Source: a virus
Reading direction: 5' to 3' (one strand)
Virus genome (UHGV): UHGV-1888586
Length of the DNA stretch: 20,217 bases
The notes below the pieces were generated by a model, which had not been told where the DNA came from, did not search any database, and saw only the letters and a program-made list of their open reading frames with translations. Below are positions 2,514 to 7,909 of the stretch, piece after piece. The translations under genes were made by a program, and so were the position numbers. Position 1 is the stretch's first letter, and the number at the start of each line of letters is the position of its first letter.

Positions 2514-4877
2514 TTATATATTTTCTCTCATTTCTATCATTTCAATTCTAGATAATGCTTTTTGGTAATTCCTGCGTTGTAATGCAGCTTCAAGGACTAA
2601 AGCCTCTTCATAACGAATACCATAACGTGAGCCTGCCGGAGTGACCAGAATATCTTCATATTCTGGATCTGCCTCTTCTTCATACTCTTCTTCTACTTCT
2701 TGAAACTCTGTCTCGATGTACTCCTCTTCTACATCTTCAACTACAGGAACGCTTACGAATGGATTTTGCGCAAAAGGTGAACCATCTTCATTAAGAACAG
2801 GTATCATTTCCATTTTTGGAGTCTGATACTCTTCATTCACTACTCGTTTAATCCGTGTTCCGTCTTCCAGTACCTCATCCTTTAATATCTGACGACTCTC
2901 AGTAACCATCACTGGTTTGCTTACAATTCGAGTTTTAGTAACCTGCACTGGAACTGTTGTTATGCGAGTTTTAGTAACCATTACACCTTCGTTTGTCTGA
3001 ACCTTAGTATATTGATCATCCCACTCGTCAAAGCAAAAGAATCCAAATCGGTGCACATCAAGCCCATGACGTTCAAACGCCTCCTTTGCACGTTGAGCTA
3101 TTACGCCAAAATGCCAACGAGCTCCGTCTTCTCCTTTTTCTTCTGTTCTGTCAAGATACTGAAATTGAACGAAGTCAACCTCTGACCATGCGTCAAGTAT
3201 TGTATCAGTGATTTCAAGAGGTGCAGTTTTAGCTCGCTCATCTGAAGTAACGGTAAAGGCTGTTTGAGTGAATCCACCAGACCATGGAAGTGTGCTTATT
3301 CCACAACTAAATGCATTTCCCGTTGCAGGATGCAGGTTTTTGTTTACTTGAATAGTCCCAGATCCTGATGCCTCCAGTCTAACAGAACAATTAGAAACAC
3401 CCTCGGTAGCAATTCTAACTACTGGAGATGAATCACTTGCGGTATATAACCTGAAAGAACCTTTATCACCATCGGAATAGGTAATTCTAAGCATTCTAAA
3501 TCCATTACCATCAACATCAAAAGCCCTATTCCTTAAATGGACGCCTGTTCTTTGCGTTGTGTCTGTAACCTTAGAATTTATGTAGCTTAACGTTTGTCCC
3601 TGACCATTTTCCCAACCGATTCTATATGAATTCCTCAATAACAAGGCCTTCATATAAGTTTCCACACCTTCTTCTGATGAGAATTGCCTTAGAACACTTA
3701 ATGGGAATGTTATCCCTGCCCCCCATTTTGCACCATTAGAGCTAATACTCAGCGCTTGAGTGCAGTCCTCTGTAAGACCATTGATTGTAGGATCAGCACC
3801 GGCAACTATCGATACTCCATTTGTTTTGCCTTTATTTATGGTTTCATGTACATCAACATATTCTCCATGATTGGCCACTGCAATCTCGGCACCCCATGTC
3901 GTTCCATTAGCACCAGACATTCGTTTTGCATCAAGATAAAGAGACCATACATTTGATGTAGAAACTGTTAAGTCATTTAATGCTGCGCCTACAATTCCAA
4001 TTGCCGCACCGCCCTGATTTATTTTATTGTGCGCTGCACCTGCTATACCAATTGTACCAAGAGATGCATAACTTATAAGAGTGGCATTATTTTCTATCCA
4101 TCCAAGATTTGGCTGCATTGTTCCGTTAGGGGCCATAATGTCCTTCTGACCAAGCCATGTGTTTTGTTCTCCGGATGCGTCCCGCTTACCAGAATAATCA
4201 TAGGCAGCATCACCAACAAATAATCTAGGATATCTTGCTGGGTTCACTGGCGCATCAGGTGATGACCAGACAGATCGACGCTTAAGCATCACGCATCCCG
4301 AACCAATAAATTTAGCCTCGTTATCTACAATAAAATTACCCTTATGGATAGAATTTAATAAGTACGTACCTGTAGGAACATAAACATCACCGGAAAACAA
4401 TGCAGCGGAAGCGAATGCGCCGTCCGAATCAACAACCCCTGTCGGGTCAGCACCTCCTGCAAAACCACTCCAAGTAACAGGCTTTGCTAATCCTCCGACA
4501 AATCCAGCTCCACCAGGACCCTCCAGTTCAGATCGCAGTTGATCAGGGTCATACTTCAGCACATTAGGAAAATAGAACTGCTGTGCACCATATGCATCGT
4601 ACACAGCCATGGAGTGGCCTTGCACAGTTACGAATTTGGCAATCTGTCCGTTATATACAGGGTAACCAGCGGCGTTAATGATGATTGGCTGTGCAACAGG
4701 AACGTGAGAGCCGTCTTCATTCTCCACATAAACCTGAATCTGGTTTTCAGGATTTACCGGGTCAGTGTCAATTTTACCGATATAAATTTTGCCATTAGCT
4801 ACGGCTTTAAAAGAACGCGCCATAGTGAAGAGTTGCGAAGGCATGCTTACCACAACATTTGCGGTGATATCTGACAT
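2514..4877 (-). CDS. Tailspike: P22-type N-terminal head-binding domain, divergent receptor-binding domain, C-terminal intramolecular chaperone (peptidase S74-like) domain
   Basis: 787 aa from the ATG at 4877 (GGAG 8 nt upstream); the track ORF extends 16 codons further to 4925. The first ~115 aa ([11 protein letters not shown]...[22 protein letters not shown]...[13 protein letters not shown]...NVLKYDPDQ) closely match the P22 gp9 head-binding domain. The C-terminal region has the S74 hallmark TSDERAKT followed by RWHFGVIAQ. Confidence 0.9.
2517..3245 (-). other. Predicted autocleaved C-terminal chaperone domain of the tailspike; predicted scissile Ser codon at 3243-3245
   Basis: The SDERAK motif matches the SDxRxK Ser-Lys dyad motif of intramolecular chaperone domains in endosialidases and the T5 L-shaped fibre. 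The 243-aa region also contains 12-aa tandem repeats ([12 protein letters not shown] / [12 protein letters not shown]) and an acidic tract ([30 protein letters not shown]). Confidence 0.6.
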
Positions 4878-4902
4878 TTCATTGCTCCAGACGAATGATA
4901 TG

Positions 4903-4925
4903 ATGCAACCATGATGTGATTGCAT
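4903..4925. promoter_or_regulatory. Candidate operator palindrome in the mnt-tailspike divergent intergenic region
   Basis: ATGCAA-N11-TTGCAT inverted repeat within the 121-bp spacer between the divergently arranged tailspike ATG (4877) and mnt ATG (4999). The right half-site doubles as a possible -35 (TTGCAT) for mnt. Confidence 0.3.
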
Positions 4926-4998
4926 ACCGAAATGGTACTATTGAGTATTTATCCAGTAGGTTACGATGCCATTCCACCCAACTGGTGAGGCATCAAGG

Positions 4999-5265
4999 AT
5001 GTACAGCAAATACGATGAGGCGCAGTTTCACTTGAGACTTCCGCATGAACTCCACGCGAAAATTAAGCAGCGTGCGAAGATGAATAACAGATCGCTGAAC
5101 TCAGAGATAATTGCAGCGATTGAAGAATCGTTGGCTAAACAAAGCTCTGCATCCGTTTACATTGACGATGCAGAGCGTATGGCAGAACAACAATCTGATA
5201 TGGTTAAGAAAATGGTTTTTGAAACGCTTAAGACCATGTATAGCAATAATAAAAAGGAAACATAG
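4999..5265 (+). CDS. mnt: Mnt-like ribbon-helix-helix repressor (Arc/MetJ superfamily)
   Basis: 88 aa from the ATG at 4999; the track ORF starts at 4966. Clear similarity to P22 Mnt over the whole length: QFHLRLPHELHAKIKQRAKMNNRSLNSEI versus P22 HFNFRMPMEVREKLKFRAEANGRSMNSEL, and C-terminal DAERMAEQQSDMVKKMVFETLK versus DAERLADEQSELVKKMVFDTLK. Confidence 0.85.
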   Translation: MYSKYDEAQFHLRLPHELHAKIKQRAKMNNRSLNSEIIAAIEESLAKQSSASVYIDDAERMAEQQSDMVKKMVFETLKTMYSNNKKET

Positions 5266-5335
5266 AAATCTAGTTTCCGGCTAAAATGGCATTGCCTTCA
5301 TGCTATCCTGTGAAAAACTAAGGAGAGTTAACCAT

Positions 5336-5821
5336 ATGAAAAAATTACTGTTAATTATCCCGCTTCTGCTGGTTGGATGCGCAAAAGTAAGTGACTATCA
5401 AGCAAGTTGCGAACAACGCTATCAAAAGCTTAGCGATATGGCTAATTGCCTTGATGCCAGTGTGAAGAACGACTCACGCATGGCATCAGCACCAACACCT
5501 AAGCTGTATGTCCTTGCTGCAAAGATGCTCGGGCAAGGTGTCGATGAAGGCAAGATAAGTGACGCACAGGCAAGACTTGAGCTTCAGAATCTTTATGTTC
5601 AATTACAAAGCCAAGAACAAGCCCAACAAATAGCACAAAGCCAAGCATTCCAGCAGGCTTTATTGAATTATCAGGCTGTAAACACAATGCAAGCGATCGA
5701 GCAAAAAGCGAGACAGCCTGTTATAACTCAACCCTATCCAACACGCGTTGACACTTACACAAACTGCAATTCAGGGTTTGGAAATACAGTCACATGCAAC
5801 AGTAGCAGTAACATAAGATAA
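5336..5821 (+). CDS. Prophage lipoprotein, unknown function, in the sieA-equivalent position
   Basis: 161 aa from the ATG at 5336 with AAGGAG upstream; the track ORF starts at 5300. Signal peptide MKKLLLIIPLLLVGC with lipobox LVGC, Ala at +2, a Gln-rich helical middle, and a Cys-containing C-terminus (TYTNCNSGFGNTVTCNSS). Confidence 0.75.
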   Translation: MKKLLLIIPLLLVGCAKVSDYQASCEQRYQKLSDMANCLDASVKNDSRMASAPTPKLYVLAAKMLGQGVDEGKISDAQARLELQNLYVQLQSQEQAQQIAQSQAFQQALLNYQAVNTMQAIEQKARQPVITQPYPTRVDTYTNCNSGFGNTVTCNSSSNIR

Positions 5822-5911
5822 CAATCAGCAAAGGTATCTCCTATGCAGAGTTGTACGATAACCCTCGCGTTCTACATATTTGGTTTTTGCACGTTCCTGG
5901 TGTTTGAAAAG

Positions 5912-7909
5912 CTATTCTGACAACGCATCAGACTTAGCCCCCTGCGTCAGAGCGTTAATTGCCTTTTGTGCCTGCTGCATTGCTTTCTCAAAGGCTGTTG
6001 ATCCGCGTGGGGTGTTTGCCATTCGGAGCATTGCATTTCTGAATGGCTCGCTCTCATATGCGCGAGTAAGAAGTCCGTAGCTTACTGCTGCGCCAGTTGT
6101 CGCCGGGTTCATTGCTGTCCCATATCCGATAATGAACGGGATGGTTTGCTGCCCTGTTGGTGTTGTTACTGCCGCTTTTGCAGCCTGCTGCGTGGATTGC
6201 AGGTAGTTTTTCAATCCTTTCAGATAAGCAGCGTCCTGCCCCTTAAATGTGATGCCAGTCTGGTTTTGCAGGATGTTAAGCTGTCGAAGGAACTGGTCAG
6301 GGGATCCTCCAGATTTCTCCATCGCCTTTCCAATGATGCCATTGCGCATTTGCGCCCTGCCAACACGACCAACTGAGTTATACAGCGTCTTAATTTCAGA
6401 TTTGTTCTTGCTGAATAGCATGTTGTTGACAACTTCCGGCGTCAGGTCGCCTTTCATGAGAACATTCTTCAGCCTGGTATTCTTTAGTTTCGCCGCTTCG
6501 TCAGCGTAGACGGCATTGGCCTGCTGATATTTACGGAGAGTATCGTTGCCAAGATTCTGACCAATGGCACCATTGATATCGTCTGTCATCGCCTTGTAAA
6601 CGCGCTGAATGGCGGCATCGGAACGGTTTGGTAACACTGGTCGCTCACCCTTCACGTCCATTCTGAACTGGCTGCGCAGATCGCTTAATTGCTTCAAATC
6701 CAGATTTACCGGACCATCAGGACCAGCATTGCGAACAAGCTCATCACGATAGGACTGAAGTTTTGAAATAGTCTCGTTATCGGCGACCTTACCAAGCTTC
6801 TGCAGGTTAGATATTTCTGTATCAATCTGCTGAATTGCTCGAGCAGGCTGGATATTGACTCCCGCCATTGCATTCTGAACCTGCTCAAGACGGTTCCCTG
6901 CAGCACGACGAATTCCTGATGTTTTCGCTTTAAGGCTGTCAATAACAACAGCTGGATCATACTCACCGAATTTATCAGCAAATCTCTGCACCAACTGGCT
7001 TCTCGCTTCCTGTTGCGTTGCTCTCATCCCGCTTGTGCCAGCCAGGGGGATATTTTCCGCTGTCGTCTGCGCCATTTTCCCGACGCGGGAAGTAGGCTGT
7101 AACAGGTCTGTGGTGTGCAGAGGAACTCCTTCACGCTCTGCAAATCTGATAGCCTGCTGCGCTTCTGGCGCAATAGCACCACGAACGCCACGATAAGCAG
7201 CACCTAACCCACGTCCGGCAGCGTTAATAGCACCGCCAGCCAGCACACCAACGCCTAAATCGGTAGCAAGTGCTTCCGCATCATCTTTCATACTGTTTGC
7301 AGCAAGTGATCCAACTGCGTTTTCTGCGAGAAGGCGAGTTGCCCCCTGAGCAATTCGACCAGCAAGTGTTGGTGCCTGTACCGCCGCTCTCTCAACGCCA
7401 GAAGGAGTGAGGTAAGGCAATGCCTCAGCAAATACCCTGCCCTCTGTAGTTTGTGGAGTCAGCGCGCCTTGCTGAAGGCCAAAGTCCTGCTCTAATCCCT
7501 GCGTTGTTACTCGTGGCGCTGGTTGATATGTACCATCACCAATGCCGAGTTTACCGCCAGCCCAAGCCGCCGCACTTGTTACAGCATCGGCAACTGATGC
7601 AGGTATGTTTGCCACGTTCACGCCAGCCTGCACCAGTCCGCGACCAGTCTCTCTTACTGCTTCGCCAAGATCAGACATAAATCCACTTTGCTGTGGTTGT
7701 TGCTGTGCTAATGGTTGTTGTGTCTCCACTGGCTGCACAGATGGCAATGGATAGGCAGCATAGAAAGCTTGCTTAGCCTGCTCTGCATTTTCTCCGGCTT
7801 GCGGGGCCACGACTTCATTGAAGTATTGCTCCTGAGCCTGCGCTTTTTGTTCTGGTGCTAACGCCTGATACTGTGGAGAGGCGATAACATCTTTCCATGC
7901 TTTAGCCAT
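5912..7909 (-). CDS. Ejection (DNA transfer) protein, P22 gp16-like
   Basis: 665 aa, last gene of the 7-20-16 ejection trio, Gln/Ala-rich composition; start codon overlaps the gp20-like stop. Called mainly on synteny and size (P22 gp16 about 609 aa). Confidence 0.75.
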   Translation of the reverse strand: MAKAWKDVIASPQYQALAPEQKAQAQEQYFNEVVAPQAGENAEQAKQAFYAAYPLPSVQPVETQQPLAQQQPQQSGFMSDLGEAVRETGRGLVQAGVNVANIPASVADAVTSAAAWAGGKLGIGDGTYQPAPRVTTQGLEQDFGLQQGALTPQTTEGRVFAEALPYLTPSGVERAAVQAPTLAGRIAQGATRLLAENAVGSLAANSMKDDAEALATDLGVGVLAGGAINAAGRGLGAAYRGVRGAIAPEAQQAIRFAEREGVPLHTTDLLQPTSRVGKMAQTTAENIPLAGTSGMRATQQEARSQLVQRFADKFGEYDPAVVIDSLKAKTSGIRRAAGNRLEQVQNAMAGVNIQPARAIQQIDTEISNLQKLGKVADNETISKLQSYRDELVRNAGPDGPVNLDLKQLSDLRSQFRMDVKGERPVLPNRSDAAIQRVYKAMTDDINGAIGQNLGNDTLRKYQQANAVYADEAAKLKNTRLKNVLMKGDLTPEVVNNMLFSKNKSEIKTLYNSVGRVGRAQMRNGIIGKAMEKSGGSPDQFLRQLNILQNQTGITFKGQDAAYLKGLKNYLQSTQQAAKAAVTTPTGQQTIPFIIGYGTAMNPATTGAAVSYGLLTRAYESEPFRNAMLRMANTPRGSTAFEKAMQQAQKAINALTQGAKSDALSE

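Follow-up and report, generated by a model that had tools for sequence, protein, structure and literature searches.

The window analysed here is a stretch of 20,217 nucleotides from UHGV virus genome UHGV-1888586. It is the late half of a P22-like (Lederbergvirus) prophage that is integrated at tRNA-Arg(CCT). The genes and features of the window discussed below are as follows.

102-176: tRNA-Arg(CCT), the integration site
302-1492: integrase gene
1775-2419: hexapeptide O-acetyltransferase gene
2514-4877, minus strand: tailspike gene, 787 aa, the last gene of the late operon, with Pfam domains Head_binding and Peptidase_S74
4903-4925, no strand: inverted repeat ATGCAA-N11-TTGCAT, with arms at 4903-4911 and 4917-4925 (9 nt, one mismatch)
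4923-4939, no strand: proposed cognate Mnt operator CATACCGAAATGGTACT (TACC-N5-GGTA), at the position homologous to P22 O_mnt
4941-4967, plus strand: putative Pmnt, with -35 TTGAGT at 4941-4946, a 15-nt spacer, and -10 TACGAT at 4962-4967
4946-4974, minus strand: decayed Pant remnant pointing toward the tailspike, ATGGCA followed by TAAATA (15 nt) or AATACT (17 nt)
4999-5265, plus strand: mnt, 88 aa, a ribbon-helix-helix repressor with a C-terminal tetramerisation helix and the reading strand AQFHLRLP
5245-5278, minus (late) strand: weak terminator-like hairpin, GGAAAC, an 11-nt loop, GTTTCC, then UUUUUAUUAUU, overlapping the end of mnt
5336-5821, plus strand: lipoprotein gene, 161 aa, with lipobox LLVGC, downstream of mnt on the same strand
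beyond 5821, minus strand: gene-16-like gene and the remaining late-operon genes up to terminase (ORF map, Pfam)

The ORF map and Pfam matches place mnt between a Phage_P22_gp16 neighbour and a Head_binding neighbour, antisense to the late operon. The mnt gene is intact, as the first-pass annotation had stated, and both Mnt Pfam domains score above their cut-offs. The N-terminal ribbon-helix-helix domain is indicated by Arc (PF03869; 54.8 bits, cut-off 20.4) and the C-terminal tetramerisation helix by Repressor_Mnt (PF11423; 46.1 bits, cut-off 20.9). Residues 6-78 match the solved N-terminal domain of P22 Mnt (PDB 1MNT, E 5.7e-19), and residues 56-83 match its tetramerisation domain (PDB 1QEY, E 1.2e-6). 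A ribosome binding site, GAGG, lies 8 nt upstream at 4987-4990. A 99-aa ORF that begins at 4966 is an ORF-calling artefact, and RefSeq calls the 88-aa form. The identical protein is encoded by E. coli T43, JNE082640, and GCA_052906665.1. From its family membership, the window Mnt is predicted to be a tetrameric repressor, and its reading head places it in a distinct specificity class.

On the other side of the spacer, tailspike residues 1-113 match Head_binding at 224.6 bits and residues 545-606 comprise the Peptidase_S74 domain. The tailspike ATG is at 4877 on the minus strand, with GGAG 7 nt before it; an 803-aa ORF starting from 4925 is a mere in-frame extension of the 787-aa gene. The same tailspike is found, with no differences, in the GCA_052906665.1 contig (L240), but the integration context there is different and the contig stops short of the early region. 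Among complete E. coli genomes, none covers 80% or more of the segment with the tailspike and acetyltransferase genes. Downstream of mnt, the lipoprotein gene is a separate moron that encodes a putative lipoprotein. Its product belongs with phrog_6067, a family without an assigned function (E 2e-109), and had no significant match in Pfam, NCBIfam, or PADLOC (GspK of NCBIfam reached 18.9 bits against a cut-off of 130). This gene is missing from Sf101, L210, and L212, in which mnt abuts gene 16. The terminator-like hairpin at the end of mnt was read from the sequence and then folded; in phage epsilon34, a Rho-independent terminator is annotated at the corresponding spot.

The spacer between mnt and the tailspike is 121 bp (4878-4998) and runs straight into the tailspike gene. 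This spacing and the lack of arc and ant, both reported in the first-pass annotation, were borne out. At the locus itself arc, ant, sar, and the t_ant terminator are all absent. In tblastn searches of the window, P22 Arc and Ant, CUS-3 Ant, and seven other antirepressor-like proteins returned nothing at E<=1, and Pluralibacter Arc found no match. While the window covers only the late half, T43 and JNE082640 are complete sister prophages, and we looked in both for an arc-ant pair elsewhere under a Mnt operator; none was found, which leaves the first-pass annotation unrefuted on this point. Homologues of Arc and of the Ant, KilA, Rha, and Bro types were likewise lacking from the window and the two complete prophages, apart from a Rha-family gene of T43 that is unrelated and sits close to the lysis genes.

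This layout is already known as the mnt-only form of the P22-type immI region. Villafane et al. 2008 named the slot the "ant moron" and described mnt-only forms in ST64T and ST104 (PMC2629481), which removes the novelty that the first-pass annotation had implied. Their Fig. 3 draws the E. coli B7A prophage (PMC2629481), and E. coli B7A matches the window module at 97.4% identity over the full query. A tailspike/mnt layout without arc or ant is also present in Sf101, IME10, Gally, vB_EcoP-720R6, VSe13, ST64T, and SE1, and a query spanning 4700-5900 is covered to 80% or more in at least 106 of the complete E. coli genomes. Mnt proteins with a QFHLR reading head occur in at least 119 distinct contexts in IMG/VR and species-representative genomes. 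In all such contexts listed, the divergent neighbour is a tailspike or tail-fibre gene, sometimes interrupted by HNH or IS elements, and never arc or ant. The missing arc and ant are a common, previously described variant, not a peculiarity of the window prophage, and the practical value of the observation is modest. Annotations can be misleading in the group of Sf101, IME10, and VSe13, for example "partition protein ATPase".

The reading strand of the window Mnt, AQFHLRLP, differs from PHFNFRMP in P22 as had been claimed, with the residues Gln/His/Arg in place of His/Asn/Arg. With an altered reading head the operator should therefore differ from that of P22, and this expectation agrees with a candidate site that varies with the head across four Mnt classes. 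In P22 immI (X01916, oriented as the window), O_mnt AGGTCCACCGTGGACCT stands directly before ATTGAG, the -35 of the annotated Pmnt. The candidate CATACCGAAATGGTACT also stands directly before ATTGAG, at 4940-4945. Its half-sites are TACC at 4925-4928 and GGTA at 4934-4937, and its centre, at 4931, is 9 nt ahead of the -35 ATTG. The ST64T site AAGACCACGGTGGTCTT has the same centre relative to the -35 as both P22 O_mnt and the candidate. The four classes pair their reading heads and sites as follows.

P22, epsilon34, Pluralibacter: head PHFNFRMP, site AGGTCCAC-C-GTGGACCT
ST64T, SE1, Gally: head PQFNLRLP, site AAGACCAC-N-GTGGTCTT
Phlomobacter: head PQFNFRMP, site ATATCAC-C-GTGATAT
Window Mnt: head AQFHLRL, site CATACCGA-A-A(T/C)GGTAC(T/G)

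The sites of all four classes share one common centre relative to ATTG, and the site co-varies with the reading head. The ST64T-class site adjoins its head in all mnt-linked IMG/VR loci that carry it (n at least 44), and the 4923-4939 candidate is present in all loci with a QFHLR head. The P22 Mnt half-site is GTGGACC, in which the TGG of positions 2-4 includes the base most critical for P22 Mnt (PMC2726951). These three positions are constant in the P22, ST64T, and window classes and read TGA in Phlomobacter. Position 5 varies with His6>Gln, and positions 1 and 6 vary with Asn8>His. Such co-variation of head and half-site would be a useful data set and may amount to a natural recognition code for ribbon-helix-helix beta-strands.

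Mosaic junctions (three, independent of one another) and one IS2 insertion lie immediately to the left of 4923, and in each case the 17-mer stays joined to mnt, though the conservation to the right of 4923 could merely reflect common ancestry of the mnt module. The dyad symmetry of 4923-4939 in the window is 4 of 8 pairs, with a chance of about 0.11 at a fixed centre. The same-class sites of JEP4 (TACCG-AAA-CGGTA) and Buttiauxella L211 (GTACC-AAAAT-GGTAC) are more symmetric, at 6 of 8 pairs. The left half-site is polymorphic among 85 close relatives (4928 C>A in six contexts, 4926 A>G in one). The 17-mer is not depleted in SNPs, with 3 sites against 3.8 expected, and SNP-level conservation is uninformative for either candidate site because divergence among the 85 contexts is too shallow. 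No second copy of the 17-mer, at up to 4 mismatches, was found in the window or in the complete prophages of T43 and JNE082640, nor was a second operator found near the antirepressor-like genes that are convergent with mnt in JEP4, L213, L214, and L218. The antirepressor-like genes of JEP4 have their own C2-like repressor. Based on its position and its co-variation with the reading head, 4923-4939 is most likely the site to which the window Mnt would bind. The likely operator thus corrected, TACC-N5-GGTA, points the design of EMSA and reporter experiments at the right DNA.

The correction concerns the inverted repeat ATGCAA-N11-TTGCAT, which the first-pass annotation had offered as the operator. 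The repeat itself is real, and its right arm abuts the 17-mer. There are also weak signs that its pairing matters: Escherichia sp. E1V33 (L210) has a homologous repeat with a compensated pair, ATTCAA-N11-TTGAAT, and the single mismatch of the arms is mended by either of two independent SNPs (4909 C>T, 4919 A>G). However, the chance probability of the L210 compensation is estimated at about 0.1 at 30% local divergence, and a perfect 6+6 inverted repeat with a loop of 0-15 nt appears in 39% of dinucleotide shuffles of the 121-bp spacer. Among the 85 close contexts the repeat region is instead enriched in SNPs (9 sites where 5.1 would be expected, with five that break an arm), again at a divergence too shallow to be informative. 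The distribution of the repeat is more telling. It is missing from most loci with the same head, including VSe13, JEP4, L036, L052, L053, L211, L213, and L214, and it moves with one tailspike-leader type rather than with mnt. Nor does it coincide with the position homologous to O_mnt, and 17 bp separate the centres of its half-sites, compared with a total site of 17 bp for the Mnt tetramer (PMC2726951). The repeat may equally well reflect a stem-loop in the leader RNA of the tailspike, at -9.4 kcal/mol on the minus strand, though folding stability is not kept in L210 (-2.7). We conclude that the repeat is probably not the Mnt operator and is a possible tailspike-leader element; a role as the operator, or as a second operator, of the window Mnt is highly improbable.

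The predicted Pmnt aligns with the annotated Pmnt of P22 X01916, TTGAGA-17-TATCAT, and has counterparts in ST64T (TTGTGG-17-TATGAT) and VSe13 (TTGTTG-17-TACGAT). Its hexamers contain zero SNPs among the 85 close contexts. The 15-nt spacer is poor, and the promoter was uncalled by a simple consensus scan. That scan for promoters and terminators over 4700-6000 gave nothing above shuffle expectation and no minus-strand promoter.

The promoter that faces the tailspike has fared differently in phages with and without ant. Pant is intact in the ant carriers P22 (TTGACA-17-TATATT) and L296 and L307 (both TTGACA-17-CATCAT). Every mnt-only lineage, the window included, has a degraded counterpart of Pant: ST64T has TCGGCA-17-TATATC, without the invariant final T, Gally has TCGGCA-17-TGCATC, and VSe13 and JEP4 have ATGGCA-17-CAAATC. 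At the P22-aligned Pant positions the window retains 0 of 6 bases of the -35 and 3 of 6 of the -10. There is therefore no support for tailspike control from the old Pant.

These data bear on the proposal of the first-pass annotation that Mnt had been repurposed for tailspike control. In such a scheme, Mnt at the spacer would repress a tailspike-directed promoter in the lysogen, or would act as a roadblock that tunes late read-through. The candidate operator is 46-62 bp upstream of the tailspike ATG and is kept beside a tail gene in every mnt-only lineage, and the ST64T O_mnt remains a perfect palindrome despite the decay of Pant. Minus-strand -10-like hexamers can be found at 4949-4944 (AATACT) and 4903-4898 (TATCAT), and the 2008 epsilon34 paper of Villafane et al. 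raised, as speculation, an effect of Mnt and Arc on late read-through into gene 9, the tailspike gene (PMC2629481). Besides the loss of Pant and the lack of a minus-strand promoter in the scan, this proposal has to contend with at least 12 contexts in which an HNH gene of about 600 bp intervenes between the spacer and the working tailspike start, with the mnt module retained. In P22, moreover, tailspike expression is already supplied by the antiterminated late operon. The repurposing of Mnt for the tailspike is not supported by this comparison, and we consider control of this kind unlikely.

A different question is whether mnt does anything at all. The gene could be a functionless relic of an arc-ant deletion that is heading for decay. 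No recognisable Mnt target other than its own operator is present in the window or the two complete sister prophages, Pant has decayed, and the P22-like phages Sf6 and HK620 live without mnt. Decay is visible in the IS2-disrupted locus L048, in which the reading-head Arg is replaced by Ile and the lipoprotein gene is truncated. But L048 and a stop-interrupted Citrobacter copy (L214) are the only two damaged mnt copies among the loci examined. Compared with relatives from Escherichia, Shigella, and Serratia hosts, dN/dS of mnt is 0.12-0.28, and this is at high synonymous divergence (pS 0.72-0.91 between mnt and its most distant relatives). The DNA-binding half of Mnt is nearly invariant across five host genera, Escherichia, Salmonella, Serratia, Citrobacter, and Buttiauxella. 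The mnt gene is under purifying selection, and a matching operator is kept in each of the three mnt-only specificity classes, which makes a mere relic very unlikely.

The reading that we prefer, with a probability of roughly 0.6, is that the locus is an mnt-only ant moron encoding an autoregulated orphan repressor, the operator of which is probably 4923-4939. Mnt would bind the 17-mer, which occupies the place of the ancestral O_mnt directly beside the -35 of the mnt promoter. Since the site abuts this -35, Mnt's own promoter would be its only cis target, forming an autoregulatory loop whose sign we infer. Expression of mnt, possibly together with the lipoprotein moron, would come from the prophage and run antisense to the late operon. 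With the Pant that faced it decayed, the tailspike would depend on read-through of the late operon rather than on a promoter under Mnt control.

Mnt may also act in trans, on an incoming phage that shares its operator class, by repressing the ant promoter of that phage. By analogy, such activity against ant-carrying phages is plausible. A scan of IMG/VR for the exact operator CATACCGAAAYGGTAC upstream of ant gave at least 86 matches. Those listed include 63 mnt-linked copies, one spacer copy at a contig end, and 22 in unrelated contexts, the last being about the number that we estimate for chance matches of a 16-mer in IMG/VR. One context recurred, in an unrelated group of phages with a higher GC content (L092 and L096 among them); CATACCGAAAYGGTAC there matched a promoter-like tandem repeat, which we put down to coincidence. 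No ant-carrying phage with the window operator class was among the matches listed, so a role in trans-immunity is without an identified target. Operators of the ST64T class do precede arc-like and ant genes, in L243, L296, and L307.

More broadly, the three mnt-only lineages keep the repressor and a matching operator under purifying selection while the promoter once controlled decays. We tentatively raise the possibility that orphan Mnt/operator pairs form discrete, co-evolving classes (His/Asn/Arg, Gln/Asn/Arg, and Gln/His/Arg) that are selected without an antirepressor of their own. If the classes are kept in this way, Mnt would have a job that is independent of ant. One option is a trans-acting "anti-antirepressor" immunity, by which incoming ant-carrying P22-like phages would be unable to induce the prophage; if true, this would add a layer to prophage-prophage competition. 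The other option is that Mnt governs how far late transcription reads through into the tailspike gene.

Compared with P22 immI, the window locus has the same two-domain Mnt, genomic slot, and orientation, and its candidate operator has the same geometry relative to the -35. It differs in being without arc, ant, sar, and t_ant, in its decayed Pant, and in the change of residues 6 and 8 together with the half-site. In the Salmonella phages ST64T, ST104, and SE1, as in the window, mnt is the sole immI gene, located between gene 16 and the tailspike and transcribed divergently from the latter. The ST64T type further resembles the window in being antisense to the late operon and in the decay of Pant, and it has a dyad next to the Pmnt -35, where the window has its weakly symmetric candidate site. 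The two Mnt proteins are about 50% identical, and the spacer is 135 bp in the ST64T type compared with 121 bp here. The pairing of head and site is PQFNLRLP with AAGACCAC-N-GTGGTCTT in the ST64T type and AQFHLRLP with CATACCGA-A-ATGGTACT in the window. The downstream accessory gene also differs, being the lipoprotein gene in the window and another gene in the ST64T type. The E. coli and Shigella phages Sf101 and IME10 and the Salmonella phage VSe13 have a Mnt of the same QFHLR class facing the tailspike. The Mnt of Sf101 and IME10 is 90.5% identical; Sf101 has the same spacer as the window, and IME10 matches at 95.9% over the region. VSe13 has no ATGCAA repeat and has a truncated antirepressor-like remnant convergent with mnt. 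The window locus adds a member of a specificity class to this previously described arrangement.

Several relatives carry antirepressor-like genes, of the Rha/Bro-N and KilA/ORF6 types, downstream of mnt and in convergent orientation.

Antirepressor-like genes convergent with mnt, in the coordinates of each relative locus
L006 (JEP4), 3270-5930: antirepressor-like region
L213, 1072-2745: antirepressor-like region
L214, 2808-4348: antirepressor-like region
L218, 2772-4186: antirepressor-like region
L003 (VSe13), 3269-3559: antirepressor-like remnant

In JEP4, a small Arc-like ribbon-helix-helix gene lies ahead of the antirepressor-like genes with a divergent C2-like repressor opposite, and together they form a second immI-like switch that is not run by Mnt. 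The antirepressor-like gene of VSe13 is reduced to a 96-aa C-terminal remnant. At loci L243, L296, and L307, a consensus TTGACA promoter is followed by the ST64T-class operator AAGACCACGGTGGTCT, which lies directly upstream of an Arc-like gene; L296 and L307 also have a P22-type Ant motif close by, paired with a PQFNLRMT Mnt. The ST64T specificity class is therefore found both with and without arc/ant-type partners.

Insertions were located around the tailspike start and at the edge of the proposed Mnt operator.

Insertions in relative loci, with the equivalent window position
L212, 1830-2369: HNH/AP2-type gene insertion, equivalent to window about 4863-4877
L048, 1321-2549: IS2-like element, junction equivalent to window 4922/4923

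The HNH/AP2-type homing-endonuclease gene is inserted a few codons into the tailspike gene in 12 related contexts (L212, L030, L038, L046, L061, L106, L132, L138, L140, L151, L169, and L186). The tailspike remnant 'ATGTCAGATATCACC' still adjoins the mnt spacer in these contexts, and the new tailspike start is some 600 bp farther away from it. In L048, the IS2-like insertion coincides exactly with the left boundary of the proposed operator. This prophage copy is decaying, since the Arg of its Mnt reading head is replaced by Ile (QFHLILP) and its lipoprotein gene is truncated.

Among the matches listed, the exact 16-mer CATACCGAAACGGTAC also occurs in an unrelated, GC-richer phage group (L092, L096, L104, L109, L115, L133, L139, L144, and L155), as part of a unit of about 60 nt that resembles a promoter. 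This unit often recurs at a distance of 515 bp, and it precedes a pair of small genes in the neighbourhood of a cytosine methyltransferase and a terminase. We rejected these units as Mnt sites and judged the 16-mer a chance match; the unit is nevertheless itself a conserved regulatory repeat.

The tailspike (window 2514-4877) carries a C-terminal Peptidase_S74 (intramolecular chaperone) domain, and this exact tailspike was found in no complete E. coli genome of the collection. Further features lie near or overlap the tailspike and mnt genes.

Window features around the tailspike and mnt genes
1775-2419: CatB-related hexapeptide O-acetyltransferase gene, after the tailspike gene
4871-4904, plus strand: promoter-like elements directed toward mnt, located right where the tailspike gene begins
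5245-5278, minus (late) strand: weak terminator-like hairpin with a trailing U-run, overlapping the mnt stop codon
5336-5821: lipoprotein gene, 161 aa, lipobox LLVGC, phrog_6067

The acetyltransferase possibly modifies O-antigen. The plus-strand elements (CTGACA-17-AATGAT, with TGaTATGAT at 4896-4904) did not exceed chance in a scan, and are reminiscent of STnc6030, an antisense RNA that the P22-like phage BTP1 expresses as a prophage at the 5' end of its tailspike gene (PMC7067206). The hairpin has the same relative place as an annotated Rho-independent terminator of epsilon34. The lipoprotein may act as a surface or exclusion factor expressed from the prophage; its gene occupies the slot held by sieA in P22, which is filled by different lipoprotein genes in Gally and in the Buttiauxella locus L211.
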